A DNA stretch of 63,145 nucleotides, counting the filler, from Polymyxa betae A26-41 (taxonomy: Eukaryota > Protista > Endomyxa: Phytomyxea): assembly GCA_003693705.1 (NCBI GenBank). It is 6 parts of 6 records of this genome, joined end to end, with 100 filler letters (N's around TTAATTAATTAA, not from the genome) between each part and the next. Parts side by side here need not be neighbours in the genome. Positions count along the whole stretch, not along the records: positions 1 to 15,271 come from RBZT01000722.1; positions 15,372 to 30,046 come from RBZT01000256.1; positions 30,147 to 52,142 come from RBZT01000481.1; positions 52,243 to 55,685 come from RBZT01000177.1; 2 more parts are not named here. The stretch is one strand, 5' to 3'. Positions 9,057 to 54,894 of the stretch are shown piece by piece. The notes under the pieces were generated by a model. It was not told the DNA's origin and ran no database searches. It saw only the letters and a program-made list of their open reading frames with translations. The position numbers and the translations under genes were made by a program. How positions within the stretch are numbered: position 1 is the stretch's first letter; the number at the start of each line of letters is the position of its first letter.

Positions 9057-9812
9057 ATGATGCGCCTATTGGCCCAGCTCGCCTGTTTTACGATCATGAT
9101 CGCAACCGTGCTGGCCCAGCTCGGGTCGGCACTGGACAGTGACTCAGAAACTGCTCTCACTCCATCTCACAAATCACTCGTCATCCGTCTGCGATTGCCA
9201 TCACGGACGCCCATCTCAGATCAACCTGGGCCAGTACGATCAGATGACCGAAATGCGGCTGCAACGCCATCGCCGCGCGGCCCGATCCGACTGCGAATCA
9301 AGCGCCGCCTGTCCGATCGACATCGTCTTGGCGGCGGCCAAGGGCGACCTCGAGTCATTCGGCGCCGCCTGCTCATGGAAGGCCGGCACGAATTCGACCT
9401 GCGCCGCCAGGCTGCGGACGCCGTGCTTCGGGCCGACCTCCGGGGCCGGTATGCCCGCCTGGTCGCCGATGCGAACGAGATCGTCACCATGCTCGGCCTA
9501 CAGGATCCCGAAGCCCGAATCGATTCCCGTTACTGGCTGAAACAATACTACCCGCATCTGAACTTCAGGAAGGTCGGCGTACTGGCCCGGTCCTGGCTGG
9601 TCCAGTACGACCAGCTGCTGATGTGGATCGCGGTCGGGAAGCGACAGTTAACATGGGAGGTATCGGAGCAGCTCGAGGCAGCCCAGCACGTGATCGCATC
9701 GCTGCGCGGTCCGAATATCATCCGCGCCTGTACCGACGCCAACACCGATTGGACGGCGCTGATGCAATTGTCGCATTACGATCTGCAACTCCTGACACGA
9801 ATGGAAACTTAA
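9057..9812 (+). CDS. Single-exon secreted, Arg-rich protein, 251 aa (nuclear effector candidate)
   Basis: Signal peptide MMRLLAQLACFTIMIATVLA; basic NLS-like stretches (RLRIKRRL, RVIRRRLL); intact GC-rich ORF. Confidence 0.8.
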   Translation: MMRLLAQLACFTIMIATVLAQLGSALDSDSETALTPSHKSLVIRLRLPSRTPISDQPGPVRSDDRNAAATPSPRGPIRLRIKRRLSDRHRLGGGQGRPRVIRRRLLMEGRHEFDLRRQAADAVLRADLRGRYARLVADANEIVTMLGLQDPEARIDSRYWLKQYYPHLNFRKVGVLARSWLVQYDQLLMWIAVGKRQLTWEVSEQLEAAQHVIASLRGPNIIRACTDANTDWTALMQLSHYDLQLLTRMET

Positions 9813-11330
9813 ACGACACCAATGCACTGCGACGTTTCACTCCTAGTCTGTTCATGTCGCAATGGCTGCATGAAGCAGTTGTATTGGATTAGCTCTTTAC
9901 TGGCGTCAGAATCGCTGTGGATAAGTAAGGTCGTACAGGCCCCAGAAACAGCAGAGTCTTCAATAAGTACATAGCGGTGATCTGTTTGTAGGAGTTCGAT
10001 AGATTTCAATGCGAAGAGCGGCTTGGATTAGAATGGTGATCGAGATTGGAATGAAGGACCGCGTTCGTGTGGGTGATGAGCAGATCAGAGCCAGTACAAC
10101 CATGATGTGGATGTTCAACTGGGGATACCTTCGTGGGTGTATTCGGTCTTGTAATGGCGAGATTGGTGCGGCGATGTCTTTCCGTGAACATCAGCAGAGA
10201 CGAGCCCGCTTCCATGGCTCAGAAATTCGTTGCAAAAGTCAATCTGTGATTGTGCGTGCGAGAACAATCTGCGTGAACTGAGACGAGTGACGAGTCTATT
10301 CACGAATAATCACGATCTTTTTCACCAGTCACGCAGTATTTACTTAGTTCTAGAACGCAGTTTCTAATCCCACAGAAAGCGACAGTCGTTGAAAAAACGC
10401 TACAGAAAACGCAGTTTTAATGGCCAAATATCTGGCGAAAGCATAATCACACGGATGTAACGTATCACAATCAACAGCATTCCAATCCGTCAGAGACAGC
10501 GCCGAGAAATTTCCGTGACCGGCTTCGTCACAAACGTGAAAACCCATCAGGGACCATAGCCAGGGCCTGCAGCAATGATCTAGGACAATCAGCCACCGAC
10601 CTGCGGCCTCTGTCGGTGATAAAATGTTGCCGCTGTCGCAAAATAAAATGAATGCCACCAGCGTGGATCGAACACGCGACCTTACGATCTTCAGTCGTAC
10701 GCTCTCCCAACTGAGCTATGTCGGCATCACTTCGGACCTCACTGGGTGCTCACATATTTGTGTCTAATGGGAGAACTTGAGAGGTTATCAAACCTGTTGA
10801 AGTGCATCCATCCCTGAATAGAGATCTGAGCTCGTCCAGATACAATATTGAAGAGTAAGAACACGGATGTGATTAAGGCGAAATGTCAACCCGCATTGCA
10901 TGTTGAGTGCTGTTAACCAGATACTATGGCAATCATGTGCTGCGGCATTTCATTGTAGGCGATCCTGGTTTGCTTACCATCAGTATCTGTATATAAACTT
11001 GAAAGTTCAGACATCCAAACACAACTTCCTGTTTGTCACAATGTCACATTTGAAATTCGTTGAGGCAGATAATAATTTGGTTGCAATCCGATTTGCATGC
11101 TATGTAAAGAGAACCGGCACTTCGCAAGATGTTAGAATGAACTTCTAGAATGCTCCTGCCATTGAACCTCTAGAAGGCTCCTTCCATTGAAACATCGTCA
11201 CTCAACAATCGGAAGTTCTTGCTTAAATCTACCATTGAGATAAGCAATATTCAAAAAAGGTTTATGATGTTGACAACATTTCTGTGAAATCTCGTTCACT
11301 CGAACCATCGCCGTCAAAGGCAACAGGTAA

Positions 11331-11393
11331 GCGCTATTCGTTCATGGTAGAATAGCACGTTGACTGGCCCGGGTTTAATTCCCCGATGGCGCA
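11331..11393 (+). pseudogene. tRNA pseudogene (Gly-like), anticodon arm deleted
   Basis: GCGCTATT..TGGTAGAATAGC A-box resembling the tRNA-Gly genes here, GGTTTAATTCCC B-box-like, acceptor 3' side ATGGCGCA and a downstream T-run. Only 63 nt long. Confidence 0.7.
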
Positions 11394-11766
11394 GTCGTCA
11401 CTTTTTGTTTTCGAATTTAGTGAGCTGAAGGCGGTAATGTCGCAGACGATGGTAATCGATTTGCAACAGGCGCAGTTTTGAACAATCACTAAATTAAGAA
11501 ATCCCTGGGGCAACCCGCATTTTTTTCACATGCGCAGATTTGTAAAATCACAAAAATATGTACGGAGTAATGCTTGGATCCAAACGCATTTATTGAGATT
11601 GCAACTGGCGCAATTTTGTAAAATCACAAAGATGTGAAATCCTTGTGAGACCACGTCGCGAATGACTTCAAGACAAAACAGACGACTCCGGTTGATGGTT
11701 GATACATTATGGCCCTAACTGTCTTTATCGTATCCCTTTGATAGATCGAACATCGTGATTTGTTTA

Positions 11767-12225
11767 TCAGAAATTATAGGGATTCGGGGAAAAGGCGACA
11801 ATCCATAGTGCCAGAGTTGATAGCCAAATCATTCTTCTGTTTCTTGTGCTTCTGTCGATCCGTTTGAATTCTTCCGTCGTCTTCGCCTTGCTCCCCGCTT
11901 CTGACTCCACCTTCGATTCTGACAGCGTTGGCTTTCTGGCCACCTCTTGGACCGAACAGTTCAACGACGGCAACTTTTTCTCCTTTGGTTTGGGCTTGAG
12001 CGTCGAAGGCGTCGCCTTCTCAGCCTCGCTTGAAACCGAATCCGTGGTTGGTGTAGTCGGCTCGCTAAAAGCAGGCCGGATGCTGAGCGACGACCGCAAC
12101 ACCGAGTCCTCAACCTCGTCGAGTTTCGCCTTAAAACGCTTCAGCAGCTCGCTCTGGACCGTGTCGGCTCGAGTCGGGGGCGGCCGGGCTGAGAGCCGGC
12201 GAAGACAACGGCCCCATGTGTTCAT
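11767..12225 (-). CDS. Probable mitochondrial membrane protein (presequence, coiled coil, C-terminal TM), 152 aa
   Basis: Arg-rich, acid-free N-terminus MNTWGRCLRRLSAR; heptad helix LLKRFKAKLDEVE; C-terminal hydrophobic IWLSTLALWIVAF. Confidence 0.7.
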   Translation of the reverse strand: MNTWGRCLRRLSARPPPTRADTVQSELLKRFKAKLDEVEDSVLRSSLSIRPAFSEPTTPTTDSVSSEAEKATPSTLKPKPKEKKLPSLNCSVQEVARKPTLSESKVESEAGSKAKTTEEFKRIDRSTRNRRMIWLSTLALWIVAFSPNPYNF

Positions 12226-12505
12226 GACGTCCTTATTCGATGAATAGTACCAGCGATACCGAGCCGTTCATCATCCGTCACCATTCATGAATTTGCAGAC
12301 AGACTTGACAAACAACTTTTTCGCCTCATTTTTAGAAAGTGCGACAAGAATTGGAAGTGTGCGACAGTCATCTCCCCGCAATATGAAAACCCTCATGGTT
12401 TTAATCACGCACTTTCTAGGCAATATGAAAAACCCTTAAGTCACGCAAATTTTTGGATCTAATTTTTATTATTTTGCTGACGTTATCAAGATCGATTCGT
12501 TCTTG

Positions 12506-12800
12506 TCAATTCGGTGAGCAGCAGGCGCCGAAGGACGCCGCTACCAGCTTAAACAATATCAGCGCTGTTTGAGCTCTATCCTTTAAATAACCCCGGAACA
12601 GCCCATCGTAAAACATTATCTCTACAAAGCTGATCAAGGTCAACGCCACGAATGGATGCTGATCCGTCAATTCGATTTTCTTTCCGTTCGAGGCAATCCA
12701 TGCGCACCTGAACCGATTCCGTTGGGCCAGTTCGTCGCCCAGCGCCGCTGTCGTGGAGCGAGTCGACACCTGCCGTAAACTGCAGCTGGTGAGGCAATTC
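12506..12800 (-). pseudogene. Degenerate paralog of the 13080-13569 gene
   Basis: STRSTTAALGDELAQRNRF/VRMDCLE (frameshifted) matches STRSTTTLTDVQAQVNRLHIRMDRME; hydrophobic C-terminus. Confidence 0.5.
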
Positions 12801-13079
12801 GGCGACTATAAACCTCCATGAATGGCGAGCCGGCCAATCACCCTACCATGAATGCGAAATTTCCTTCGGAAGGCGCCGTTGGCCCATGACGGAGACTTAA
12901 TAGCTGAGCGCACCCAGATCTGCCAGAAACGCCAAATGCCTATCTCGTGGATAATATTTTTTGGAGCCAATGATCTGGTGAAACCCTAACCCTAACCTTG
13001 ATTGGAATGCAATCAGTGCGAACGAAGTCGCCGAATCCAGGCGACTCGTGAAGAGAGGAGGATTCGGCAGAGTTTGTAT

Positions 13080-27602: not shown

Positions 27603-27673
27603 GCACCGATGGTTCAATGGTAGAATAGCTGCCTTCCAAGCAGTTGACCCGAGTTCGATTCTCGGTCGGTGCA
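27603..27673 (+). tRNA. tRNA-Gly(TCC)
   Basis: Exact reverse-complement copy of 24671-24741, followed by a T-run. Confidence 0.97.
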
Positions 27674-28477
27674 CTTTCTTTTTCCATTAAGAAACATCTC
27701 ATCCTGAAGCTTGTCCTATGCGGGTTTCAGGTCTCAGTTTTCGTCCATCTACTAATGACATAGCTTCTTCACCACCAGTGCAATGGCATTGCCATCCGTT
27801 TTTGTCCAAATATGTATTCTTGTCGTTCCGGAACGACGCTCCAATAATCTTCAATGAAATCGTTAGCAGATTGCAGGATTGGGATTGTTATCACAAATAG
27901 CACGTACAATGCATCGTAACTGGATTTTGTGTTTTATGATTCGTTTATAAAAATGGATACATTGAAAAAGATCATCATGTCTGTAGTTGCCAGGCTTGGC
28001 CCATCAGAAGCTCATACCTTACGAAAGACCTGATGGCAAGAGGCGTCCGCGAGGCGGAGCCTTGTTAGTTTTAAGGCAGCGTGGGACGATGATCATTTTA
28101 AGACGCTTCGAAGACTTCGGGGGCCATTTGTATTAATTAATTGAATTCTGTTTTTCGTGGAATCTATCAAGACCGGGTTCCTGATCGCAATTTGATGGGA
28201 AATATGAAGATGATGCTCACTGCGAGACGAGAACCCTAACCCCACACGGCAGTAGTATCAGGATGCAGCAAGACACCGATTAGCTTTGGTCACAGAAAAA
28301 AAGTTTAGTAATAAGTGCGAAGGCGTTGAGCGGAATTGCGAGCATAAACAAGGCGCAAGCTGGACGATTACGGCAACTTGGCTATCTCACGTCTTGCTCG
28401 AACTGAATCACAAAGCCTTAACTTGACAAAAAACAAAAGCAAATTTTCGTCCACCGAAAAAGACAGAAATCACTTCA

Positions 28478-30163: not shown

Positions 30164-33100
30164 ATGCAGCTGAAGTGCTACTGTCTATCTCATCGATGCG
30201 ATGGAAAGATGGTTCACCCCGACACCTTTTCTGCACATGAATGAGCAGACCAAAATATGTCTAAGCATGTAGAAGACAACGCGTCATCAATATCGTCAGC
30301 TTCGGAACGTGTGGGTTATCAGGAAAGCACGGTCGACAATGTGTCAGTGTCTAGCGAACTTGGCAATGCTGGAGCAAGTATCGATATTGAAATCGATTTG
30401 GCATTTTCTGCGAATGACGCCCAAACTGACAATCAACTATCAAGTGCGAATCCAGAGAACAGCAGCGTTACCAATTCTCCAGAGCTGGCCATCCTTTCGG
30501 ATAACCGAACAAGTTCGATAAGCTCAATCCACGAAGCTGATTTAAACCACAATGGCGTGTATATTGATCCAATCGCCGATTTGAAGTTCAAATTCGATCA
30601 ATGCATAGCGAAGACTATGAACAATGGGCGATCAATGCATAGCGAAGACTATGAACAATGGGCGAAAGTTGCTCCAAACTCGATCGGTCATTCATCAGAA
30701 CCAAATTGATGAGCTTGACATCCCCTCATTACAGCATCTAGAGAGAATCAAGATTAAGGTCATGCAATTTGCAGATCAACGCTTAAGATCAGGGATTAAC
30801 CGAAAAAGTTTCGACGAGCTGTTAAAATTGTATCTTTTGGAAATGTCGACGCGGCCAGACCCCCAGACTGGAGAAGCCATGGGAATGTATCGGAATTTCC
30901 CTGAAGGATGGGATCAAGCCAAGAAAACCGTTTTGAGGGATCTCTTCCTGAATTTTACGCCAATACTTTTGGAATCATGCCCGAATGGACACTGCATATT
31001 CATTCAGGACTTGGAAAACGAGCAGGAATGTCATGAATGTCACACATCAAGACAGAAATCAAAATCGTTTCTGTATTGGCCGATATCATATGATATACAG
31101 GTTTCAAATGTTTACGAGTGTTGTCGAATTTGAAAATGATCAAGTGTTTTGCAGATCCGATTCGCGTTCCCGTCAATTGCTGCTCTCTTTCGTTCCGGGT
31201 TTTCGGAGATCGACGACCTGGTCAGAGACTTCAAGGCAACGAACAAGAGAGAGGAGATAATGTCAGATTGGGTGCATGGAAACCTTTTCTACGATCACTA
31301 CGCTCCTTTTCATCTGGAAGCCACTGGAGAGCTCTCTATGTATACAAATATCATCTAATGTAGTTTCCTTATAGCTGACAGCGAGTTAGATGGAATGGGA
31401 ACTATGGTACTGGCATTGGCGCATTCGTTTGATGGAGCTCGAGTGCACATTTCATCAAAGGTATCAATCTGGCCGCATCTCTTCTCCTATCTTACTCTGC
31501 CGCCCTCTGCCCGTTGCAAACCCTCTTCAATTATGATGACCTCCTGTTCATATCTCTCAAGCCAAGCGTTTTTCAAACTGATTGCTCATGAGCTCAATGT
31601 TATCAACCAGAGGGGATTGTGTATTTTCGATTCGGTTACTAACCGACTTATAATGGTAAGGAATGGCTAAGAAGAACACAGTTGTCATAGTCAAATTAAG
31701 ATGCTGTGTGATCAGATAAAAGTCAAGTTGATGAGCAGCATGGGCGACCTGCCCGCTTTTGCAAAGGCCATGAGAAAAGCTGGTCACAACAGCCGACATG
31801 GAGCCTGTATATGCTCTATTGAAGGTGTCGTCAGTGGGCAGCGTACATGCCGGCTAGGCTCGTTTGCGTTCTTACCTAAGCATCATCAGTTTCGTAAACG
31901 TGCCCTGATTCCGAATTGTTTGAATCTGCATATGAAATCGCCTACACCATGTTTTTGGACGAAAGATTCAATAGTGGAAGCAGGTAACTGAATTAAGATG
32001 AAAGAAAGTTTACTTATCCGATCAACTGTTTTACAGGCCAAAACGCTTCTCGTTATGAGCTGGCGAAGAAAAATGAGCGGAGCGCAGTGCCAAGGCTCAT
32101 AACGGTGTCGCTCGCAAAGCCAAAGGGACGATCAAGCCTTACGATCGTAAATCCGACAAGAAACATCCATACAAAAGTTCAGGACCAGGGCATTATGGAG
32201 TTGACGCGTTAACGGAAACCCTGAGCTCAGGATGGGACCCAAGCAGGCAGTATAAATCTGATTTCATGCATCACCTAGGCGTAAGTCAAAGACTTGTATT
32301 ATTTGCTGTCACAAGATTTTTAATCAAAACTGCAGAACGTGTTTAGGACTCTAGTGGAATCCCTAGACCACGAAAGTGGTGGATCTGGCCTCGCCTTCAC
32401 TGCTGAGGCAAGGAAATCAGAACAGGTTCTAGGCAGGCTAAAGCATGTCTGGGATGTGGAATCGCCGCTTCCTTGGTCTTTGGTTGCAAATAGCCGTATG
32501 CAAATATCCAAACGCCTCAGCTCTCTCGTGGTTCCAGAATGTATGGCCAAGACTATTCTGTACGCTTATGAAATTAACGGATGTTTGAACAGGCACAGAG
32601 GAAGTGTTCAATCCATATGTAAAATCACAAATTTTGACCAAGAACGCACAATGGCACATGTTGCTGCACGGATTGTTCAAATTTATGACACGAGGTCTTT
32701 TTCAAAAGACTGGAGACGCAAAAGCTGTTCAGAAAGCCCTGTATGGTTTCTTTGACTGCTTTTCACAGATAACTTGCTCCATTTTGAAGCGTTCCCAACT
32801 TGAAAGACTACAGCTGAAAATAACAGAAAGCCTGGCAGTGCTGGAAGAGGTAAGCTGCTTGAATTTGGAACTGGAAAACGTCTTCACTCACAGTTCAATA
32901 TTTTCAGAAACTCCCCAGCATGTACATGACTCTACCGGTGCACTTTATGCTGCATATTGTGCCTCATATTCTACAAGATTTGGGGCCTCTAACTGGAACG
33001 TCTTGGAATTTTTGGTCGGAGCGGTTTTGAAGCCCATGAATCACGCTAGCCGAGGGCAATCAGTCAACATAATGAACAACTACTCAGAACAAGTGGTGAT

Positions 33101-34199
33101 ATCGTGCTTCGGTATGATGGCAGTATCTACCAAGCAAAATACTGATCCCACTTTTTGCATAGGCGTGAATACCATCAGCAATTTCCCTACAGCTCAGATA
33201 GGCTGTGGACATTTGGAGAGTCAAAAGATGCCGATGAAAGCAAAACCGATGATGAATTGGAAACCACTCCGGTGATATTTAAAGTTCAAGATTTGCAGTT
33301 AGGTACTAGATTACTTCAATGATTGCAGTCAAACAGATTCCAACGATTTTTATTCAGGAAAGTTACATGAAGAACTTTTCAATCAGATCGAGCAGTATCG
33401 AAATTCGGTTGAAGTTTTCAATCAGGGCCTTATCAAGCCTTTCTCACAGCAACAGCTAACTCAACAGCCGATAGCGTTTTTCCAGCGTCACCATTCTGAT
33501 CTGCTACAATTTTTAGGGAGAGAGGGCTTCCAGGAGAATCTCCTGAATGCTTTAAAAGGTAAGCTTCGCTGTAGTAATCGTCATGGAAGCAACTGGAAAT
33601 GTTTGGGACAGTGTTATTTTAACAGATTGCCTTTATTAGAATTCGATACGCTGAGTAGTTACTGCCAATTGTTTGTTTAATCTTCAATACAAGAAGTGTT
33701 TTATTCAGATTTCCTGGCTTTCACCTAACCTGCAATGCCTTTTTACAAAAACGATTTAGGAGAAATTCTGACAATCAAACGAGTGCGACACAAAGAAAAG
33801 CTCTTTCGATCCCGCGAATACGAAGAAAAACGATCGCTGAAAACCTGCAACCATATCATGCAGGTCAAAATCGACTCAACCAGAGCCAGCGGAACAGATC
33901 ACTGGTTTTGTGCTGTTAATTGGTTTACAAAGATGTCAATAATGGAAGAGATGCCAGTAATGACCATTGCATACGTTGATTGGTTCCAGTCTCTTCCAAG
34001 ATCTTCAAATCCTGCCTTTACAACTGATGAAGAGACCGGCCTCCCTCTAGTTGAACCAATGAACAAGACAGAGAACAATAAATGGTGTAGGTGGGTGCTA
34101 TTGGATAATGTCAACCCTTGCAATTTTATGCTGGGAAAAATCGAGGGAGTCAAAGGTTACTTCATAATTCGAATTGGAAGACTCGAACAGAGCGAATAA
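30164..34199 (+). mobile_element. CACTA/EnSpm-type (CMC) transposase, intron-rich, pseudogenised
   Basis: N-terminal CYC..RCDG..H; CPNGHCIF..ECHECHTSR; FDG..SIWP..LPP; DLPAFAK..GHNS..CIC; DFMH; HFMLHIV..LGP..FWSER. Lesions: a stop near 30240 and a 34-bp duplication frameshift. Confidence 0.88.
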
Positions 34200-34379: not shown

Positions 34380-36190
34380 GCACTAGTAACAGCTGGAACC
34401 GGCGATAGACAGAGCGCAGGCACTGTTACTATTGAACAGAATGGGCCCATGAAGACAGATGATATCGCAGCCGTGATCGCCAGAGGCTGTTTCATCAGCA
34501 GGGGCAGCAGCACCAACAGAATGACACAACCCAGAAAAAAACTAATGAAAAAGGAGAAATGTCTGAAAATGGAATAATCTAATAAATAACGATTACTGAA
34601 TTACAACATTCAAACAGATTGATAAACCAGATAGCACTTAATGAGAGAAAGAGCACTCTCACTTATAGAAGAAGCAGCAGCTGAAACAGGAATACCATCA
34701 CCAGCAGCTGAAACTGCAGAACCAAACCATCAGCAGCAGCAGCCGCAGCAGCAGCAGCACAGTACCGTTAATATCAACAGCACCAGCACCAGGAAGCATT
34801 AGCAGCAATAGTGTCCTCGAAGTTAACTGAAAGTAACGGTAGGTGTACCAGAAGCACAACCAGAATCATTAGAACACAATTTATCAGTTCAAGATAAGAA
34901 ACGGAAAGAGTCTCAATATGAAATCGTCAAGCTGCCATAATTGAAAATGCACAAAAGCTCCAGTTTTCCGAATAAATACAGAAGATAAATATAAAGCGAA
35001 ATATAAACTCATTGATATAATTGAAAAGATAAAACATTCAGGATTCAGATAAAACGTAATAAAACCAAAAATCCCTCACCTACAGCAGATGCAGCAGCAG
35101 AAACGACAGCAACGGCGTCAACAGGCAGTGATGACACCGAGAACCGCATCAGCACCAGTATCTTCGTCACCAATAGTGACAGCGGCAGAAGCTGAAACAA
35201 GAGCACTATCAGCAGCAGTTGAAACAGCAGAATCATCAGCAGCTGCAGCACAGTACCATCATTATCATCACCACCAGGAAGCATTAGCACCAATAGCGGA
35301 CGTGAAGTTAACAGAAGCTAGATGCTGTAGCAGCAAAAGAAATCGCAGCCATAGAATGCAGCCATAGCAGCACCAGTACAATCAGGATCCCTCAACCCCA
35401 TCATCAAATAGTAATGTAAAACAAGCTAATAAAGATTGTCAGTATTCATAAACAATCATTTTTCAAAAGGCAAAAAGCCATCAAATTGATAGAAAGATTG
35501 AATAAAGATCAAGGAGGAAAACTCTGGAAATAGGGACTTACCTCTAAACAATAACACGTAGGTGATTGCCAATATGTGGGCTAGGCTCTGGGCTCAGCAG
35601 CCTCGTGTCATCACGGCGCCTTTCGACTAAAGGCGGTCGACAGGCACCATGATGGCACGGTGTCATTGAGCCAGAGAGCGACAGCCGGGACTCACCACCG
35701 AAAACGTGACAGCGGGGGCTCGATGGTCTGAACGACATCGATGATGCTACGATCTGAACAGCTGTGTCGGCTCAGCCACGATCCAGACAACGGCGCAGGA
35801 TCCATGATCGGGACAGCGGCGGCGCCACTCAGATCAGGACGATGACCTCGGCTCCATAATTAATCTGGACCGAAGGGTCAGTACGCCACCCATGTAGGGA
35901 CGATGACGTCGGCTCCCTAATCAATCTGGAACGAGGGGTCAGTACGATAATGACAAGACGATGTAAAACGAGCTAATAAAGACAGATAGAATTCAAAAAC
36001 AATCATTGTTTAAAGGCAGAAACCTGTAAATAAATAGAACAGATTAAATAAAAACTCAAGACGGAAAACTCAGCAAATAGGGACTTACCTCTAAACAATA
36101 ACACGTAGGTGATTGCCAACATTTGGGCCAGGCTCTGGGCTCAACAGCCTCGCGTCATCATGGCCTGGCGACCGAAGGCGGTCGCCAGGC
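34380..36190 (-). repeat. CAG/GCA-rich low-complexity region with duplicated exon-intron blocks (possible decayed second gene of the CACTA element)
   Basis: 35418-35645 resembles 35962-36190; a ~60-bp duplication lies at 35836-35946; minus-strand donors AG|GTAAGT occur in both blocks. Confidence 0.5.
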
Positions 36191-36204
36191 ATTCGGGTCT
36201 TTCG

Positions 36205-39095: not shown

Positions 39096-39100
39096 CATTT

Positions 39101-39654: not shown

Positions 39655-41794
39655 ATGCTTTCTTCCTGCATCTTTCTCTTGATACTGGTGATATGCGATG
39701 CCACCAATGGCACCATTATGGGGCAACTCATTAATAGGCCGATGGAGCAGCCCGCCGAGGTAAGCTCGTCCGTTCTGTATCAGCAAAAGTCGTCGATTCG
39801 TCATTAATGGGAAATGGATAGTTTTTGAGTGAAAGTGATATCCGACCAGCTCAAGATTCCGATCATCAGCCTCTTTTACTCCGGGATTTCCTGGTTGGCA
39901 TTGAAAGACGAAGTACTTCACCTCCCGCTTTCGATTTGAGTGTAAAACGGGCAGCTTTCTGCGAACATCTCAGGCTAAATATTCGATCTAGGAGCCATTT
40001 GAGACTTTATCAAATTCTACTGTATGAAGTGGTGCAGCTCGCTGCCCATTATGAGACTGAGATTTCTTTGCAATGTGAATCTGTCAATAGGGGGTTCTAT
40101 TCACACATCAACTGTGACACTACCTGAAGAGCAACAATTAACAAACTCATTTCCGCGACCGAATCTGGACTTTCTTCTGAATCATAATGTTGCTGATATT
40201 ACAGACTATGATAGTCTATGCCAGTTTCTGGTAACAACAATTCTATCGGTAGGCTGCTGTATTAAATGGTTTCTCCGAACAAGGAGCCGAATGCCAAAGA
40301 GCTGCAAGCTCTCTCTCAGCAAGCGTCCGGCTGTTTCATTGATTATATCAAGAGAGTCAGGAATCCATTAACAGTGGATCTGAATGGCACAAATATTATC
40401 ATACATGAAATCACGGAGATCGCTCTGTGTGAGACCACATTACACAAGCTCATATTAATAGCCAATCTGTATCGGAAACTCATCTTAATCCGGACGCTTC
40501 GTCGCGATTTCTTGCAAGGCAATCGATCTATGAATGACTGGAGGATTGCTGTCAGTGGTCCAGTATTACGCTGTCTCATACATTGCTGCTCGAAAGATCT
40601 CGAGATGTTCCAGTCCCGTTGGGGGAATCCGTTCTCACATTCTCGATTCAAATTGAGATGCTCCGGAGATAAATGTTGATATAATCTGGGCCAGACTCGC
40701 TTTCTTCCACGAAATTTGAACACTCTGCTTCCTTTAAAACGTAATGTTACATCTGCAGAATCTGATACGAATGTTAATCCCTCGCAAACTGAATCCCAAA
40801 AACGCCGCCGACTGGCCTTCGAAAAAGGCCGAAAACGAAAGTATTATTTGCAGAGGGTACTAAACTTCACAGTGGACGATATCACGGATTACGACAGCCT
40901 CTGCTTCTTTCTGGTAGGTTTCGGATTCGCTCTTCATATTGTTTTTTTAAATTTCTGTAGAACAAACAGCCTGATGCAGAAGAATACGCTTTCCTCACAG
41001 ATCCCCGTTGGTGTATATCTAAAGATGAAGCTGTTCCTGGTCCTAGGAATCCTTTGATTATCAATGTTAACGGTGTCGAGGTGGAATTGACAGAAACCAG
41101 TGAAATTTCTCAATCTACGAGTACTTTGCAGAAGCTCATTCTTATTTGCCGCTTATATAAGAAATTTGTATGGGCTCGCGAGAATGGATGGAAATCTCCC
41201 GGATGTACCTGGGAGGTTCGCTGTGTCCCGATTCTGTGCTGTCTCACTATGTGCTGTCAGAATGATCTGAAAATTTTTCAGTCTCAATGGGGAAGCAAAT
41301 TTCCACATTCCATATTTTTTGCTAAATGTTCCCGCAACATTATTGATGGGTCACTTTGTGGTTTTGAACAGCAGATTGCAGAGACCAGTTACCTCGGTGG
41401 CATTCAATTTGTTCGAGATCTTGATCACGAAGATCTCTATGATTGTTTGCTTCGATATCAAATCAAAGGTTTTCAAACAGTATGATATATCACCGAATGG
41501 TTTCGCTTGATTTTGAATATCTCTCAGAAATCTTTCCTTCTCTGTATTCGAGTCCTGTCAGATCAAGTTCAGCAACAAAAGTTGAAATGTTCCCCCGGTT
41601 TACTCGCTTTTATAACTGATATTGTGAATCCCATATTGAACTGCCTTCAATATCATTGTAATAACGATGTGGAGCTTTTTATCAAGACTTTCGGAGATCA
41701 AATCGACCACGATCAATTCCGATGGAAATATTGTTCTGAATTGTCAGAACAATGTCCAGCTCTATGCCAGAAGACTTATGGATATCAACAGTGA
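39655..41794 (+). CDS. Secreted protein with three tandem Crypton-tail-like domains (in-frame TGA at 40677 after module 1)
   Basis: Signal-peptide exon MLSSCIFLLILVICDA (39655-39759). Modules: PVLRCLIHCCSKDLEMFQSRWG, PILCCLTMCCQNDLKIFQSQWG, PILNCLQYHCNNDVELFIKTFG. NLS-like KRRRLAFEKGRKRK. Exact 5' splicing is unresolved. Confidence 0.75.
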
Positions 41795-42423: not shown

Positions 42424-42682
42424 TTTTGGTTTCCGTCTGTGTACAGCCTAACTGCTTGCCATTGCTGCATGTGGCTCAGGCATTGAACTGCATTTAAAGG
42501 TAACCGAAAGTCACGCAATTTTTTGGTGATTAATCACGTCGGATTAGTCCGAACCCGTCTCCGGGGTCTCTCGAATGTCGTCCAGACGCCATAGTGGAAA
42601 ATCGCTAAAGTGTTCGTGGAGGAAGACAGACAGACACACGGCACGGTAACGTATTCAGCAACGTCAACGTAACGTAGCGGCC

Positions 42683-44013
42683 ATGCTCGCGTTGAACAGC
42701 AAGCTGACGGTGGGGCGATGCCCGCATGGGCATCACCCCGGCTTCATCGATGCCGTCGCCGACATTGTTGGTGTTACATTATTCGTTGCCCAGGGGCAAG
42801 CCACGTTACTGATTTGCTGTTACAGCTCACCAACACACTATCTTTGCTCTCGTCCATTGTGACATCGTCCGTTTTCTATCTGTTGCTCTCATTATACCTT
42901 TTTCTGGAGGTAACGTAATCCTACCAATTTGCTTTAACGGAATCTTGTATTTGATGATTCTTTTCATTTCGACATGGCGAACTTCCAGTCGTACGCTTAA
43001 TAATAGACCGAGTTAACGTTACACATCGACTGAGCTAACGTTACACTTGTAGTCGTCTGTCGGAGTGACGTTATGGGTCCTGATGCCCGACGATTGCCCC
43101 GAGGCCTTCAAGTACCTGGTCGTGGCGATGACGACACGTTTCTGTATCGTAATGGTATGCTGGGTTGCGTTCGCCGCTCTTGATCCTTATATGTGCCGTC
43201 CGTGCAGGCCCATTACGGCGCAGCCCGCTGGGAACGAAGGCTAATGCGTGTATTCGCCGCGCTCATCTTCTGTATTGTCTGCATGGTGGTGTTCGTGTTT
43301 ATGTTTTCGTTACAGGTAGCGTCATCGTTGCGTTACATATTGCGAGACTGATGGGTGCGCTGTAGAAGCAGCTGGATGGGCGGCCCTATCAGGGCTGGTT
43401 CGTCTTGTTCTTCATCGTTACGGTCGCTCTGAACTTGTTCATGCCGCTCTTCGTCGTGGTCATGCTGTGTCTCATCACTGGTATGTAACGTTGAACCGAC
43501 TGAATGCGTAACGTAAACAGCGTTTGCTGATCTTTCACGTTTCTTAGTCGTGACAATGCCGTGTTTCGTGCGCTCATACAAGCGGTATGACAATGATAAT
43601 GGCAACGTAATCGTGCTAACGTTACGTGACTGGTGACAGGCGACAGCGGGCTGCTGCGCTCAGTCGTGAGATTCTGTTACGGCAGCCGACCTCGCTGCCT
43701 CTAGCGAAAATGGAACCGGTACGCAGCTGGACCGACACCGCACTTGGCCTAACGTTTCACTTACGTTACGTAACAGGGCGCCGCCTTTCGCTACGGGACT
43801 TGCCGGGCCTGTATGTCAGACTTCAAATCCAGCGATCTTCTGAAGACGTTCCCGTAAGCTGTTTACGTTACTGGGTTGATTCTCCAGAGATTCTCATTCG
43901 AATTTTGCGATAGATGCGGACATAAGTTCCACTCTGCCTGCGCTTACGAACGTCTGAGTCGGATGGCGACCTGCCCGGTGTGCGGATATGTGGTCCCTTG
44001 TCCGTTGTGCTAG
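42683..44013 (+). CDS. Multi-TM RING-H2 E3 ubiquitin ligase (multi-exon)
   Basis: Hydrophobic exons followed by CRACMSDFKSSDLLKTFP|CGHKFHSACAYERLSRMATCPVC (C3H2C3). Confidence 0.85.
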
Positions 44014-45269
44014 TTGGGACGTAACTTCACGTTACATGACGTTTTGACCGGAGTAACTCTAACGAACTATTCCCTAATAAAATCTCTCGCACATGCTGTT
44101 AAGTCGGCATTCTTGTGCTGCGGTCGTCTTCACATTGTTTACGCTTCTATTACAACCAGCGAAGGAATTGGCGTCTGAAATCAGTTTCAAAACACAATAC
44201 CCTTTTTTTACTCCTCCGAATCTCTCTCAATTCAGCTCGCAGACCGTGAATTCGTGCGATTTGAAAATATCGTCGAAGAATGGCTCTGGAAATGACGTTG
44301 TAAAATCATGATAGCCTTCCGACTTCATTGTCTAACAATGGCTTGAGAAGGTCGGCTGGAACTTCATCATTTAACCCGGACTGGAACGGGTCCTGAGCTG
44401 CCTTTAAGATCTCCGAGCAAATCTCAAGCAAGTATTCTAATTCATGAAAGTCAACGATCGATTCATAAAACAGAACGGCCCAGCTCGAAATCAGACCGTG
44501 CACGGAAGGAATGCCTTCAATCACCGCCAATCAAAGCACCCCGGTGTTTGGAATACAGACAGCGATAAGCCGTCCCATCGTCGAATTAGGTTGCGACGAA
44601 CGATTCGGGACCGGATTGCAGTTCGGATGCCGAGATAAGTTCCTCGACCACCAAGACGGTCGCTGCAGTGCGAGCTGCCATTCGGTGCACACCGGGCTGT
44701 CCATAATGTCGCATATTGAACAACTTCAGAATGGTGTTCAATAGCCCTTGGCTTTATAAACTGCTGTAGTAGCGAAGAGATTTTCTCGCATATCCTTCCA
44801 ATTAGAGAACATTCACCAACATGATGCCTGGTGTGTGCTTCATTTTTCCAATATGTGTTGCATGCATTTAATGACCATTACCTAGAGTGGAATCCGTAGA
44901 GTATTCAGCGCTTTCAAAGCGTCAAAATTCCGGTTTTTTCCCGTTATATCGATCGTCGATTCTTACGACCTACAGGAAGCATTTGTGAGCGGCTTCTTAA
45001 CATCTCGAAACTTGCACTGCCCAGTATTCGCAAGCTATTGCTCCCTGAACATTTGCAAGTGCAACTCTTCGTGAGATTCAACTTGAATGTGGAAATCTTT
45101 CAATCGGACTTGTGATAAACTGGAATACTTTTCACAAGGGAAATTGAATGTTTTATTTACGTTTTTTTTTGGTCCCGGAAGAAATAATTCTTACTGAGGA
45201 ATATGAATAATTCCCGACTAACAAGGGCTTATTTATTCGGAATCCCTGTTTTCTAGCAATGCTGTCACC

Positions 45270-46669: not shown

Positions 46670-48480
46670 CATCAGGCGCTAGATTGATATGGATCAGGAT
46701 TGCGTCTTCTTCGATTCTTACGCTTGGATGTTGGATGTTTGATTCTGGGAAAATTTATTCGTAATGATGGCGCTATTTCTTTCAACTGGAGCCCATTTCT
46801 GCAAACGATCGCACTTTGAGCTAGTATTCGTTCGCGCACTCGCGAAAACCTTGGATTTGGCGACAGGTACACGTTCAAAAATGCAAAAAATATCGATGTT
46901 TCTTTTCTTAGCGATCTGCGTTAATTCGCCTGCTTTTTCTTGGTTTGTGCATTCCATTATGATATCGATATTGTGGACTTTTTATTTTGTGTGATTATCG
47001 ACTTCCTGTTTAAAATTAGATCGGAACGGAAGATTCCAGAAAACGATAGCAAATTTGCCGCTGACTGAGCGGCGGCGATCTGGCGTGAGACATGGGTTTC
47101 GCCGTCGTACTGGCCCGAAGTGAAAGGGACTGCTAAGTAGGTCGACTGATGCTGTAGTAGGGATCGCCTGTCCATGTAACGTTAACACTTGTCGAGTGAT
47201 ACGACGATGGCGGGTTTGTCATGTTGGGCTGCTGCGTATTTGAGGCTTTTAAATGGTACTGAATGAGCCTTATCAGTGGTCGCGATCGAAAGAAGTGGTG
47301 GTTGTTCTGGTTTCTACCTGGGGTGAAACATTGCAGGGTTATGTTACCTAATGTTGATATTCGCAACTGCGTGGTCAGGTTGTATTGTTTCAGGAAGTTT
47401 GGCGTGCGTGGCGTATTCTTGTAGTGTCCTAATGGCGTTTGCCAGGCAAGTGGGAGTTAGATCGCCCTTGATTACTGAGTATTTGACGTAAACAGAAATG
47501 AAAAGAAATCGGGAATTTTACTAAGAAGCGTATTCCGAGATGTAATGTAAAGATTACTAAAAGAGAAGTGGTCGAGGTGAGCGTATAAGACGCCCAGAGC
47601 GTGTAGTGGTAGATCTGGAGGCGACGGAAGATGCCTGTTGACTCACAGCTGGGTCTTTTTCAGGAGTCGAAGATGAGTTAATATCTGCTGGAGTCATTGT
47701 TTGAGGCACGACAGTATTGCAGAGTGGTAACTGTTTCCGTTTCGGTCGATCTTTACCAGGGCTTTGAAATCCAGCAATGAACTGAGTGGAACGTACAGCA
47801 TTGCGCACTTTGTGGGTGTCCGTTTGCGAGGTTGTTGTTTTTTCTGTATTGCAGGAGCGTTTCTGCTACCAGTTGAGCTTTGTCCTTGTGATGTGATAGT
47901 TGGTGATACCAAGTGGTGGGTCTGATCCGTTCGGCGTCTTTCCCTGCAGCTTTCGTCAACATCCATATACTTGGAATCGTTATCGATGGAGTTCCTGGGT
48001 GCTGCACTCATATTGTCTGATATTGATAGTTGTTGTTGCTCTGCAATAGTCATTAGCACTGTGGCTGGGTATGGTGGGGCCGACGGGTGTCCTATCAGGT
48101 TCCTCTGCTTGCATATATCGTGTTGCCTTAATAGACGTTGGCTGCACCGCTGCCAGTCATGTGAGGAGTCGTGCAGTGTTGTTGAGTTCGACCGTGGCTG
48201 AGCCAGTCTGAACTGGTTTTCGAACGCCCTGAATATTGCAGCAAATCGTTTTCTCAGTTTTACAGGTTGGTTATATTTGTGATTGCTATTTAACTTGTGT
48301 CTATTTTGTGAGAAAGTTCTGCCTTTGAGAGCTTGAATCGCTCCATTACTGCATATTGCTGCTGACCTAGTCTCCATTCTGAGTATGGCGTCTCGTATGG
48401 GAAGTTTCCTATGAAGTTGGCATCCATGGATGACGAAATAGAGTGTGTTGTAACTGAAAAAATGTACTTGAAATTGCCCG
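46670..48480 (-). mobile_element. 5' part of a decayed LINE (ORF1-like region plus APE endonuclease N-terminus)
   Basis: *WNAQ/KAGELTQIAKKRNIDIFCIFE..AILI matches the APE start (WN..GL..K..EL....DI..I.E); upstream basic S/T-rich ORF remnants. Confidence 0.6.
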
Positions 48481-48492
48481 ATCAAAGATCGG

Positions 48493-49254: not shown

Positions 49255-50897
49255 CACAGGCCAGCTCTGTTAATGCAGTCAGACTCGGTTGGGAGAATGC
49301 GCGCCTCTAAACCATTCTCGATGACTTCTAAAGTTAGGGACGTCAAGCCCCCAACGAGACATCCTAAAGAAGCCCACGCACCATCAAGGTGAAATTTCTT
49401 ATGGGGAACTTCTGCAGTTTAGAACTTAGTGTGACTATCTCACATGTATTACACATTTGGGAATCAAAGGGGTCCAATGACCACGATAAAGATAATTAAA
49501 ACGGTTTTTGGCGGTATTTAAACACTGCAAACCTCACTTGAGTTGAAAATATGACGATATGTGACTTCAGAGTGTGTTTCAGTGAAAAAAAAATAGGTTA
49601 CAGTTAGGGGTGAAGCGTATCTGGCACGTCCAGTACGCCCACGGATGACTCCTTCCAAGGTGATGGTGAGCCGTATCAAAAAGTCACTCTTGATGGCAAT
49701 ATCTGGGCACCATCCCAAACAACATCTTTAAAAAATTAAGGATACGATTTTACAATGCGGTAATCGACGTGCGACTCCGAATCTGTCGTAACTTGGGCAA
49801 AACGCCTATCTGCCCCTGCCAAGTACGTTACAGGGGACAATCACTATCATTGTGAAACATGGCCTCGATTCAAATGCAAGGAAGGTCATATCATAAAAAA
49901 CAACTTTCCGTTTACCTTTAGAATCCCACCAGTTGCAGGAGATTCGGATTTTGTCCATATCCTTCTATCATTTTGTTATTGATGGTATATATCGACAGCC
50001 GAATTTTTGATTGCGCTTTTTGGGATGCGCTTGAATTTTCAGCAAGCCACTCGATCACTTCATTTTCTTCCAAATCGTGAACCTCTTCCGCTTTCGCCGT
50101 AATCTACAGTCATTGCTGGTTAGTGGCGTCATTTCAAGAACGATATCGAGAGCGCAAAACGTCCATGCGTAAATTCTCCCTTTTCACGCACAGAACAATT
50201 AGGTCCTCCTTAGTCTCAGGTGCGTAAAGCGAATATTAATCAGGCACAACCTCACTTTAGTCACACCACCTGTCAGGATATAGACGGCGTTGCCCGTTTC
50301 CAACGGCCTCTAAGAGCACTCGTAGAGGGACTAGAGACACCAGCCAACGTGGGAAAGGTAGTCACTTTACCAACCCTTACTGGAAGTAGCACCTTTGACA
50401 CCGCTTTGGGATGATCGTATCCAAAACCCCGTCACGCTGTACACAACATACGAGAGAGGCGTATCTGCCGGGACAATCTGTCATTTTGATGGTATTCTGG
50501 TTACACGGATCGGAATAGAAAACAAGTCAATACACTGAGATACGATACCTGGAGATAATATTAATACAGAGATCGCACTCGAGCAATCCAGAGTCTTGGC
50601 CTTGTACAGAACTTACGCTTTAGAGAGCGAATATGCGAAAAGGAGGCCCAAGCGTATCTGAGTTTTTGGAAATGAACAGCATGGTGATCTCTCCTCAACT
50701 GCCATTTGATACGACTGGTTATGCGATAGAATGGTCAGGCAGTCTACACATCTCGCACTGAAAAATTTCCAAACCTTCATCAGATGAAACAAACAATATT
50801 CTTTGCCTTGAAGAAATGCAAACGAAACAGTACAAATTGCAAACGATGTCCGATAATACAATTGTTGGCCATTTTAATCAATTCAACATTAAGTAGG

Positions 50898-52142
50898 TTA
50901 ACCGAGCCAGCGGAATAACATGAGAGAGATGACCGGTGCCCACGACATTACCATAAGAACGATATGAGAGACAATCGACCCAATCACCTGAGTGGCACCA
51001 AGCAGGCCTACAATGCCCATCACGGCAACGTACATCACGGACAGCGTGCAATTGCGCCAGAACTTCCATGATAATGCCGCACGGCGTCGTCGAACAGGAA
51101 AATGGCGTCTCTGAGGGTATCGGACCAGCACCGGGACAACAGGGGCGTCCATTATGGCAGCAGATGCGTCCGCTATACCCCGAGGAGCGCTTGTTACTAC
51201 TGATTGGAATCTGCCAGGAGAACGCCTTCATGTCCAGGCGCTCCCGCAGTACGTGCATTGCATGTTTCGGCATCCGCCATTCTTGGTAATAGGAACGTGA
51301 CATTCCGGACAGCGCTGTGTATCCGATCCGATCAGAGCCAGCGAAGCTCGCGTATACTTTCCAAGATATTTCTTGTATTTGTGACAGGACATTCCGTCAT
51401 GACTGCGGCTGCTAATTAGCCATAGAAAACGGCTTTCTGATAGCCATGGAGAATTGCATAGAACGCAGGTCGTAATGTTACAGAGATTGCAGTGGAAACG
51501 TCGCTGATCCTTGCCGGTGTCATCGACTTTATATCGGCCGAAACCAGTAGGAGAATCCGTTTGAATGAGAGGAGTGCTCTCATCGAAGTCAAGAATTCGG
51601 AAATTTTTGTCAGAGAGGGGGCCATCAAACCAGACGATGTTCGGGCAATCGGGTGTTGGACATTGATAAGAATACTTCAATGATAAGTAGAACTTCTTCA
51701 GTTGGAGCTGAAGCCATCGATCATAGAGATGCCGAGATTCTCCCGAAAGTTGACGAATGACAGAATCCGTGAAGATCACAGAACAGCAGGGACATCGTAG
51801 ATCGTATCTTCCTTGATCCAGCATCGTCACAGCATATCGGCGAATGCATTCGAAACAGAACCGATGCTGCTCCTCACAGACGAACAGATTCTGTATCTCT
51901 CCGAGGCAGATATTGTTGGAACTGCAGCGACTATCGTGGAGTCCAAACACACAGAGTTGGTGAGAATTGGGAATTAGTGTATTGAGGGACGCAGATCCGG
52001 TAAATGTACCCGGGCGAACGGCTCTCGCCAGTGATCCCTTTCCAAGATTAGAAAGGGCCACAGTGGCTCTTCGGGTCCACGCCGTGGCCATTCCGGTGGA
52101 CGCAGTCGCCGTTCCGAGTCTGGGACTTGGGCTCCGTGGAGG
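50898..52142 (-). CDS. RBR (RING-IBR-RING) E3 ligase with C-terminal TM; in-frame TGA at 51228-51230; 5' end in the gap
   Basis: CNICLG-like RING1 (NNICLGE..CEEQHRFCFEC..CPCC), IBR (CPTPDC..CNLC..CVLC..H), RING2 (CPECHVPITKNGGCRNMQCTYC), then a same-frame hydrophobic tail. Confidence 0.88.
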
Positions 52143-52242
52143 NNNNNNNNNNNNNNNNNNNNNNNNNNNNNNNNNNNNNNNNNNNNTTAATTAATTAANN
52201 NNNNNNNNNNNNNNNNNNNNNNNNNNNNNNNNNNNNNNNNNN
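52143..52242. other. Artificial contig spacer
   Basis: Same linker. Confidence 0.97.
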
Positions 52243-54894
52243 TCGAAACTGGAATGAATCTCGATACCCAAGCTTGGAAGGGATCGAAATTGCTGCTATC
52301 GCCCCGAAATCGGGTTGAAGGGGTTCTGGAATCTGTCTGGGCAAATTGCCTGAATTTTCCAGTCATGCGTTTTGGAAAGAGCGCCGCCTGTTGACCATAA
52401 ATCAGCGAACTAGTCGAATCCAATCCAATCCAAATTTTAAGGGACCACTTGCAGCCATGTCCGAATCGATTCGATGACACAGATGAGTAAGTCCGAACTC
52501 CGTTTCGGGGATGTTCACTGATTATGTGGAGGGAACTCTCAGATGCGTATCCGGGATCGTTCGCAGTCCGTAAGAGGCATGAGAACACTCCTTCCTCATT
52601 TCCGAATATTGTATCGCTGAGAACGGTATAGTGGAGATCTCGAGTCGTTAACGGACGCCTTTGATTCTCCGTGGCTTGCCAAGAACACAAAGAATTGCAA
52701 AGAGTCGAGCGAACATGAATTTTTATTCTTTGTATTTCCAGAAAACAACATAAAAAATGGACAAATGGTGTCCGCTACCCCTTCGGTGCGTTTTTTAACT
52801 TTGGGACCAACACTTCAATCGCATAAAACTCCAAGCTATCAACTCTGAGCTGGAGCCGACATTGAGAGCAAACAGTGTCGAAGTAGCCGAGATAACGAAA
52901 ACGATGTGAAACGCAGACGGAAAAAAAACATTATCCTCAAGTCACGCACTTTAATTTATCAACAAAGTGCGCAGATGCGCATTTTGATTTATCATCGAGG
53001 GAAAAATCGAAAAGTGTGAAGTTAAGATGGCGGGTAGCCGGGTACCATATTTGGAGTATAAAAAGGCCGAAAAGGCTAGTGATTGTCTGAGTAAAATACA
53101 GATGTAATGTTGACAGGAATTCGTGCGAAAAATGTGACTCTGGATGTCTTTTGCCACAGTCCGGAGATCGGACTCCGGAATGAGTTGGTAGCTTCAGCTC
53201 TCGACAAGCAGCGTCAACAGCCTGTTTGGACTTCGAAATCAGATGGTCCGGGCATAAGCAGGAAGGATATCCGCAGAGGGCTCTCGTAGATCGATTCTTG
53301 ATCGTTCTGAGATAACGCTGTCACAGCTTTGCGAGTAGACGTCATAGCACAGAGTCAGATCGGAAAGATTCCCTGGATCGAGCCGTTCGGACGGCGTTGG
53401 AGAACGGAGTCAGACGGAATGATTGCAATGAATCAAGTAATGATCAAAGCTGAATGTGGGATGGATCAGGAGATGGATCGAGCTGCGAAGGAACGGTAGG
53501 ATCGGATGATGTCGGTAGAAAATGGACCACGACGAAAACTCCGGAGATGACAATCCGCATGGCCATTCCTCATAGGTTTTCTCCCGTCGCCCAAAAATCG
53601 AATATCCCAACTAGGGTTTAGGGTGTTCTTGAGAGGAACTCGTACTGTAAGTTAACCACCCCGAAGAGTGTATTAGTAGAGCCAAGCGCCCCGGTAACCG
53701 TCATTGTTATGTCAGAACGGCCACTCCGGATCCAGCAAAAACGTGAATGGCGAAAAGTCCGCAGCATAATCAAGGGCCGGGGATCCGTAACGACCGCAAG
53801 CTCGCGGACAGCGGCAAGAAGCGGACACGAACGATCTCAGATTCATCGATGCGGACAAGGTCGAGGTCGATGAAGACTTCAACTCCGCCGATTCGGGGAA
53901 GGCGCCGTACCGGCCCCTCCTAACTAGGGGTTTAGACACGGCTAATACGATTGGAGGTGGGAACAGAGGTCGCCACTCTCAGCGCCACCTGACTCCAATA
54001 TGTCCGGAAACGTCTCCGTGCGGAGATTCGGAATCCGAATCTCCGGCGTCGATACCGAACTAGAACAGATCGTCCCGCGGCTGACGTCGGATTGTAACCG
54101 CCGGCTGAGCCGGAGACACCGTATGCGGATCTATTCACGGACCGCACTGATAGAATCTTCGACGACAAAGCGATTTCGGTAACAGAAAAGTGAAAGTTAT
54201 ATAGGCTGTAACAGCCCTTTAGTAACTGCTGGAATGTGACTCGACATTGCTAGAAGATTCCAAGCCTGGAAGGTTCCACGGAGTCGGAGTGCGTGAAGTG
54301 CGCAGTGGTCGTACTGGCCCGGGGCGTTCTTGGAATGCTCCGAGTAGTATTTAATCGACTTTTGTTTATGATAAACAGTTCAGTTGTGTTTCGGTCATCG
54401 AACTGTAGCATCGGTAGGCCTTCAAGGTAAACGATGGCGAAGAGAGGGACGAAAACACCAGCTCGCAGCTCTAGATCAGCGACTCCACGACGAGATGAGA
54501 TAGACACCAGGCCCCACCCCTTTCAACAGAAACATGGTCGGGGCGAATTCCTCTCCAGCGCAAACGACAACGTATGCTATAATAACGAATTAGATAGAGA
54601 GCTGGGAGGGGAGTTAGGGTATTAGGGTTTGAGTCCAATAAGATTGGGCAGGTCACACATTATCTTGTCAGACCTCTCTTAAGTCCTCCGAATAGGGCCG
54701 AACGAGATCCAGACTAACATAAATGGGACTTGAAGTAGGGGTCCTGGTAGGTACTAAAGCGACTTTCATAATACAACAGACTTACGATATGAATACCGCG
54801 CCGCCTGATGACAAACATCAACAAACTAAATAGAATCCAATACAGTCCTTTATGCACTGGTAGACCTGAGAAAACCTTAACATCAATTTACTGA

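Follow-up and report, generated by a model that had tools for sequence, protein, structure and literature searches.

A non-palindromic 11-base word, CGTACTGGCCC, was found in both coding and non-coding DNA at about 500 times its expected frequency in a stretch of 63,145 nucleotides from the phytomyxean Polymyxa betae A26-41 (assembly GCA_003693705.1). This stretch, here called the window, consists of six contig pieces (GC content, 45.6%) joined by 100-base linkers, each made of 44 N, TTAATTAATTAA, and 44 N (at 15272, 30047, 52143, 55686, and 59298), which yield false k-mer and repeat matches. The initial annotation of the window had noted a highly iterated 10-mer, GTACTGGCCC; that observation is confirmed as real and is stronger than first described. 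The word is apparently undescribed so far and apparently represents, on 63 kb, an iterated-word phenomenon in a eukaryote.

The word and its sites

All nine exact copies of GTACTGGCCC lie where the initial annotation had placed them, compared with a mean of 0.03 and a maximum of 1 in 100 dinucleotide shuffles, and with up to one mismatch allowed there are 28 copies (19 of them one-mismatch) for 1.24 in the shuffles. The eight one-mismatch copies in that annotation exist as well, but two had been placed one base off (they lie at 9108 and 15892) and 11 more had been missed. Because C stands directly 5' of eight of the nine exact 10-mers, the word was taken as the 11-mer CGTACTGGCCC, which has eight exact copies where an order-2 Markov model predicts 0.015. 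With the exact copies masked, models of higher order predict 0.07 (order 5) and 0.36 (order 6), and the excess is still significant. Around the exact word lies a halo of 19 one-mismatch copies for 0.5 expected (37-fold), 19 two-mismatch copies for 8.4 (2.3-fold), and 98 three-mismatch copies for 83, all under the order-2 model. Among the 11-mer families of the window, that of CGTACTGGCCC ranks first (P about 1e-35).

The preference is graded, from exact to one-mismatch to two-mismatch copies, and thus suggests recognition by a protein. G is favored two bases upstream of the word (18 of 27 sites; P 1.5e-6), which may partly be a codon-register effect, and the near-matches leave positions 5, 7, 10, and 11 of the word unchanged. 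The word is not self-complementary, and its flanks do not extend it into a palindrome. None of its sub-words is enriched in the window (CGTAC, 81 versus 76 expected; GGCCC, 84 versus 69; CGTACG, 12 versus 19; GGGCCC, 16 versus 13). The 27 sites with at most one mismatch, 16 on the plus and 11 on the minus strand, are the following, with the open reading frames (ORFs) in which they lie.

9228..9238, minus strand: exact; antisense in a 252-amino-acid orphan ORF (9054-9812), frame GPVR
9578..9588, plus strand: exact; sense in ORF 9054-9812, frame GVLAR
14074..14084, minus strand: exact; frame WAST, in a group of three old paralogues in tandem (others at 12724 and 13494)
15791..15801, minus strand: exact; in the first copy of an unclassified duplicated element, paralogous to 17105
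17415..17425, plus strand: exact; in the second copy of that element, frame TYWP provided that the ORF is real
18216..18226, minus strand: exact; frame RAST, with two mismatches at the paralogous site at 16312
47106..47116, plus strand: exact; outside any ORF of at least 120 amino acids
54310..54320, plus strand: exact; outside any ORF of at least 120 amino acids
17710..17720, plus strand: one mismatch (CpG to TpG); frame DVLAP, and as a 10-mer the ninth exact copy
1681..1691, plus strand: one mismatch; unspliced, transcribed 414-amino-acid orphan ORF, frame AVLPR
9107..9117, plus strand: one mismatch; frame TVLAQ
9599..9609, minus strand: one mismatch; frame LVQYD, with 10 bases between it and the exact copy at 9578, which it faces
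9932..9942, plus strand: one mismatch; under contig 9900-10244 of a spliced (RNA) run
12724..12734, minus strand: one mismatch; paralogue of 14074
13494..13504, minus strand: one mismatch; frame WACT, paralogue of 14074
13809..13819, plus strand: one mismatch (CpG to CpA)
15891..15901, plus strand: one mismatch; identical to its paralogue at 17257, with flanks 71% identical
17105..17115, minus strand: one mismatch; paralogue of 15791
17257..17267, plus strand: one mismatch; paralogue of 15891
17313..17323, plus strand: one mismatch; within the duplicated element
22065..22075, minus strand: one mismatch; exon of a conserved MyTH4-FERM gene, coding LELAH (QEMAA in Plasmodiophora brassicae)
24188..24198, plus strand: one mismatch; frame VAQYD of a minus-strand orphan ORF of 205 amino acids
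35875..35885, minus strand: one mismatch; unit 1 of a 61-bp tandem duplication
35936..35946, minus strand: one mismatch; unit 2 of the 61-bp tandem duplication
53906..53916, plus strand: one mismatch
56983..56993, plus strand: one mismatch (CpG to CpA); broken tyrosine-recombinase-like frame (family by eye), YILAL, and possibly protein-driven
57462..57472, plus strand: one mismatch (CpG to CpA); ORF adjoining the recombinase-like frame, frame RILAR

Four paralogue groups inflate this count (15791/17105, 15891/17257, 35875/35936, and the triplet 12724/13494/14074). Their collapse drops five copies and leaves 22 sites (15 plus, 7 minus), eight of them exact, where a local-GC null predicts 0.7 (P 5e-19, corrected for all 11-mers). 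Flank identity between sites, averaged over all pairs, is 0.27, and none of the 14 tandem arrays of the window contains a site. The excess persists under Markov and codon-aware nulls and is not confined to one repeat family, in support of the initial annotation.

The codon-aware nulls were run 1,000 times each on 30 ORFs (17 kb), which hold 14 of the 27 sites (5 exact and 9 one-mismatch). Pooled resampling of synonymous codons yields 0.9 sites, synonymous shuffling within each ORF 1.9, and shuffling of codon order 0.24, and no run of any of the three reached the observed exact or one-mismatch counts. Since synonymous resampling gives 0.9 and codon-order shuffling 0.24, the amino acids themselves lean towards the word; two-mismatch ORF sites show no excess once the proteins are taken into account (8 versus 6.4 to 8.0). 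Eight ORF sites are sense and six antisense, with both orientations inside one ORF, and all six reading frames are occupied, four of them in well-supported ORFs and three within the single ORF at 9054; VLA, GPV, and RAST, the frames named originally, are among those seen in ORFs. Nine of the 14 lie in a codon register that suits common residues. In 13 orphan ORFs, five of the eight positions whose amino acids are compatible with the exact word carry it (0.07 expected) and seven of the eight are within one mismatch, in keeping with the earlier statement that the word is not codon-driven; such positions are missing from conserved ORFs, and the single one in transposon-like ORFs is unused. Positions compatible with one mismatch are used in 12 of 29 cases in orphan, 1 of 8 in conserved, and 2 of 9 in transposon-like ORFs, for 0.93, 0.07, and 0.09 expected. 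Because the word is independent of strand and frame, the force behind it acts at the DNA level.

Genomic setting, direction of change, and occurrence elsewhere

The sites are confined almost entirely to GC-rich DNA: 26 of the 27 fall where the 500-base bin has a GC content of 46% or more (26.5 kb of the window), and bins below 42% GC (17 kb) hold none. GC content peaks at 0.57 beside the word and drops to about 0.45 at 400 to 900 bases. Five of the six contig pieces carry sites, with an uneven spread that places 20 of the 27 in the first 30 kb (Kolmogorov-Smirnov P 6e-4), and many sites lie within transcribed DNA. No flip of GC skew at the sites was seen by eye. The transcribed RPA1 gene (4238-9019) holds no site. 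The word had first been described as running across genes and transposable elements; the genes stand, but the elements are weakly represented, with 2 of the 27 sites in a recognizable transposon-like element (a broken tyrosine-recombinase-like one without a Pfam match) and none in the transposon-like ORFs at 30 to 34 kb (family by eye) or the Harbinger-type DDE_Tnp_4 ORFs at 61.5 to 62.4 kb.

Point substitution is favored over insertion, because the differences between paralogues are ungapped, in five of six comparisons. Within the word the paralogues show seven changes for about 14 expected from the flanks, by a sum of our own that is marginal and open to protein constraint. The pair 18216/16312 differs by two ungapped substitutions, whose polarization needs a third copy. 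For the triplet 12724/13494/14074, parsimony favors the exact word as the ancestral state, which two of the copies each lost once. The MyTH4-FERM exon codes LELAH in the window, QEMAA in P. brassicae, and QCINA in a third homologue. All three differences from P. brassicae bring the DNA closer to the word (at least four mismatches reduced to one, by our own count); the third homologue agrees with P. brassicae in Q and A, and two of the differences look derived. This comparison, for one site only, suggests that the site was gained in the window's lineage.

A P. brassicae sample of 518 secreted-protein coding sequences (supplement of PMC9530463; the first 400 bases of each, at most 207 kb, with 17 matching other organisms) contains one exact copy of the 11-mer and none of four halo variants, and the 9-base core occurs twice, as often as a shuffled control. 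Word density in this sample, a special gene class represented by 5' ends only, is about 50-fold below that in the window ORFs (5 in 17 kb), and the absence of an excess there indicates that the word is lineage-restricted. Doublet scans of a viral collection, a metagenome collection (17 of 64 parts), and a prokaryote collection (13 of 64 parts) returned 4, 120, and 120 loci, the best single locus reaching P 0.01 among 244. No dispersed excess was found in the scanned collections, where dispersed clusters outside the selected one numbered 4, 34, and 48 for 2.5, 23.1, and 38.5 expected; the best 40 doublet loci are local arrays, none like the window's 18 clusters.

Two other word families were observed in the window. 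Telomere-like AAACCCTAA words, which resemble the plant telo-box, occur 12 times for 0.25 expected, some of them 5' of genes and others within introns (22254, 22479, and 22561), and 17 AACCCTA clusters are spread over 128-56884. Ten of these 17 clusters lie within 500 bp of a site, compared with 4.1 by shifting (P 0.024) and 6.5 when GC-matched (P 0.018); at 150 or 300 bp the co-location is not significant. The second family, GTAACGT/ACGTTAC (31 versus 4.5 expected), is dense in two genes, the MyTH4-FERM gene and a RING-like one (e.g., 21322-24354 and 42646-44029), where it occupies short introns and GC-rich exons. It is nearly missing from RPA1 and has only eight copies in the P. brassicae coding sample.

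The host had been called a eukaryote, and its spliced genes and P. brassicae-like RPA1 bear this out. RPA1 has eleven GT-AG introns of 46 to 283 bases, shown by two spliced runs, and a last exon of about 1 kb; one exon is 73% identical to P. brassicae RPA1, for which no related loci were found in metagenomes, and the MyTH4-FERM gene is 37 to 48% identical to its P. brassicae counterpart. The host is accordingly a plasmodiophorid distinct from P. brassicae; the published GC content of Spongospora subterranea is 45.7% (PMC12883290). The introns of RPA1 are longer and more AT-rich than those of the MyTH4 gene, so that the window shows two gene styles. Homologues of the ORFs at 9057 and 1454 were not found, the ORF at 57337 has no Atlas match and no related locus in viral contigs, and all six window ORFs looked up are absent from the collection.

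Three diverged tandem units with a common RFxWAxT peptide lie at 12640-14150, the first two under RNA contig 12481-13650, and a duplicated element of about 1 to 1.5 kb (75 to 90% identical, with broken frames, eight sites, and no Pfam match) lies at 15700-18650. The interval 56310-57980 holds a frameshifted tyrosine-recombinase-like gene (HxxR..RH..Y by eye) next to an ORF with a C-terminal FxSxWG segment, of which another copy is found at 40266-41485; the two together have no Pfam or Atlas match and are presumably Crypton-like. A split DDE_Tnp_4 transposase lies at 61502-62426 and a broken transposon-like gene at 30245-34199, with CpG at 0.7 to 0.9 observed/expected; this low CpG suggests transposon methylation. 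A tRNA-Phe gene and two inverted tRNA-Gly genes are found at 10652-10726, 24671-24741, and 27603-27674. An origin of the word from tRNA 3' ends, which it resembles, was rejected: the flanks have no T-loop or CCA, and the three tRNA genes carry no site.

Competing explanations

The reading that we prefer, tentatively and somewhat short of calling it probable, is that CGTACTGGCCC is the site of a lineage-specific DNA-binding protein and has been spread by biased conversion or repair. Such drive fits best because of the size of the excess, the imprint on amino acids, the lineage restriction, and the confinement to GC-rich DNA. A lineage-specific protein would read CGTACTGGCCC, and the bound allele would be cut less often or preferred as a repair template; the better-matching allele would be copied during recombinational repair, so that the word would accumulate. 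Substitutions towards the word would spread even at some cost to proteins, the GC richness would mark a recombining compartment, and the extent would be genome-wide, judging from five of the six contig pieces. That CGTACTGGCCC is a full eukaryotic counterpart of bacterial uptake sequences, winning meiotic gene conversion, present in thousands of copies, and altering protein sequences, we regard as rather unlikely. Meiosis genes and synaptonemal complexes have been reported for P. brassicae (PMC6823432), and uptake sequences accumulate in bacteria free of frame and with enriched peptides (PMC2817400).

Several points weigh against biased conversion. Every pattern that supports it also fits selection on binding sites. 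We know of no eukaryotic motif that gains by conversion, and PRDM9 motifs erode. No reader protein was found in the window analysis, and four sequencing runs aligned over 1-15260 contain no variant. The spread of mismatches over the word positions is not significantly uneven (P 0.24). CpG and TpG ratios around the sites equal those of GC-matched DNA without sites; the sites thus mark a compartment without a local effect, and a local CpG-island effect is ruled out. Several ORFs in the null tests are stop-to-stop frames with unproven translation, the one at 21628 spans an intron, and the evidence base is 63 kb. Findlay and Redfield describe genes without homologues as lacking uptake sequences, whereas orphan ORFs are the richest here.

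Ordinary selection, preserving sites bound by a general chromatin or chromosome factor that acts from anywhere in a gene of a compact genome, fits nearly as well as biased conversion, although we consider it somewhat unlikely. The factor might open chromatin, shield genes from silencing, or load replication or cohesin/condensin machinery. VANC proteins offer a precedent for a short lineage-specific word that recruits anti-silencing (PMC5735166). Selection of this kind is consistent with the graded halo and the upstream G, in so far as the latter is not a codon effect, with the avoidance of CpG-poor transposon-like DNA, with the AACCCTA clusters within 500 bp, and with the transcription of many sites; the clusters' co-location is lost, however, at shorter distances, the transcribed RPA1 is site-free, the sites have no fixed position in genes, and CpG shows no gain beyond GC-matched DNA. 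A 500-fold excess that bends amino acid sequences is also far beyond the eukaryotic factor sites known to us.

Worn transposon relics (footprints or terminal or subterminal words) or local duplication are an improbable source. The counts in the mismatch classes do fit a fixed word decayed by about 17% divergence (our arithmetic), CpG transitions account for 4 of the 19 near-matches, a single duplicated element (15.7-18.6 kb) holds eight of the sites, and paralogue copies make up 5 of the 27. Against this stand the 22 independent sites with unrelated flanks, none in a tandem array, and the substitutions at the MyTH4 site; an 11-base insert would break frames, yet intact ORFs carry sites in several frames, and recognizable transposon ORFs are site-poor.

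Equally improbable is a signal at the RNA level (a small-RNA target or a splicing or export element) or a feature local to the scaffold of the window. Small RNAs of P. brassicae have a 5'-C bias (PMC13547706), and the sites are unevenly spread; the ORF sites, however, are divided between sense and antisense, with both orientations in one ORF, five of the six pieces carry the word, and no site has an Rfam family or a tRNA-like flank.

A methyltransferase with a repair system that turns near-matches into the word, as modeled for HIP1 (PMC4390886), is very unlikely: CGTACTGGCCC contains CpG, GTAC, and GGCC, but it is non-palindromic and shows no enrichment of its sub-words. Chance, codon usage, or conserved peptides are rejected for the window with near certainty, since none of the codon-aware runs reached the observed counts and the corrected P is 5e-19, even though most ORF sites are in a register suiting common residues and the RFxWAxT triplet and the YILAL site of the recombinase may be protein-constrained.

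Significance and known systems

Listings from mainly open-access literature show neither the word nor a similar iterated motif in plasmodiophorids. Passages on motifs in PMC4471660, PMC4815078, PMC6823432, PMC12883290, and bioRxiv 10.64898/2026.10.14.759018 contain nothing relevant, and the supplements of PMC7996130, PMC4815078, PMC12503489 (12 of 13 files), PMC8256667, and PMC8471823, which are probably sequence-free, have no motif or peptide match.

Words iterated through coding DNA densely enough to change proteins are a bacterial phenomenon, known from uptake sequences and HIP1. A eukaryotic case would point to an undescribed DNA-binding system in Rhizaria, a supergroup whose chromosome biology has received little study. 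It would allow a test of whether conversion can create, and not destroy, a motif. Such a case would also caution that short peptides recurring in the orphan and secreted proteins of these parasites (VLAR, WAST, and QYD) may be traces left by a DNA word, as opposed to functional protein motifs. By extrapolation, and provided that the density in the window is maintained, some 3,500 exact copies would be present in a genome of about 28 Mb.

The initial annotation had likened the word to HIP1-, DUS-, and Chi-type motifs. The likeness to HIP1 and uptake sequences stands in that the word acts at the DNA level and is free of orientation, but the polarity of Chi was not seen. Chi is non-palindromic, over-represented, partly coding, and strand-polarized with replication; the 16/11 strand division of CGTACTGGCCC (15/7 after collapse) refers to the scaffold strand and not to replication, and in ORFs the division is 8/6. 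PRDM9 and other meiotic hotspot motifs are degenerate, lineage-specific words of 11 to 13 bases that conversion erodes. CGTACTGGCCC may share with them a tie to conversion and GC-rich DNA, but given its large excess the bias would run the opposite way.

HIP1 and the alternate iterated palindromes of cyanobacteria resemble CGTACTGGCCC in lying far above Markov expectation and inside genes; other words take their place in other lineages (PMC4390886). CGTACTGGCCC falls outside this class, being no palindrome and having no enriched core of 4 to 6 bases. The target motifs of VANC in Arabidopsis VANDAL transposons are, as described in PMC5735166, short, lineage-specific, rapidly gained, eukaryotic, and read by a protein, but they are non-coding, tandem, co-oriented, and tied to one transposon family, whereas CGTACTGGCCC is dispersed, in both orientations, through coding DNA. 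A VANC-type motif was accordingly rejected, since the tandem arrays are free of sites, ORFs hold 14 of the 27, and the flanks are unrelated, and so was a transposon terminal repeat or footprint, on the flank identity of 0.27 and the ungapped paralogue comparisons.

CGTACTGGCCC differs from uptake sequences in its eukaryotic host, which has spliced genes and no known DNA uptake and so places the word outside their class, and also in its broader mismatch halo, its richness in orphan ORFs, and its want of terminator-like hairpin pairs beyond one facing pair (9578/9599). According to PMC2817400, the uptake sequences of Pasteurellaceae (USS) and Neisseria (DUS) are, like CGTACTGGCCC, non-palindromic, lineage-specific words of 9 to 11 bases that occur in both orientations and in several ORF frames, with a preference for frames that fit codon usage and an enrichment of the peptides that they encode.

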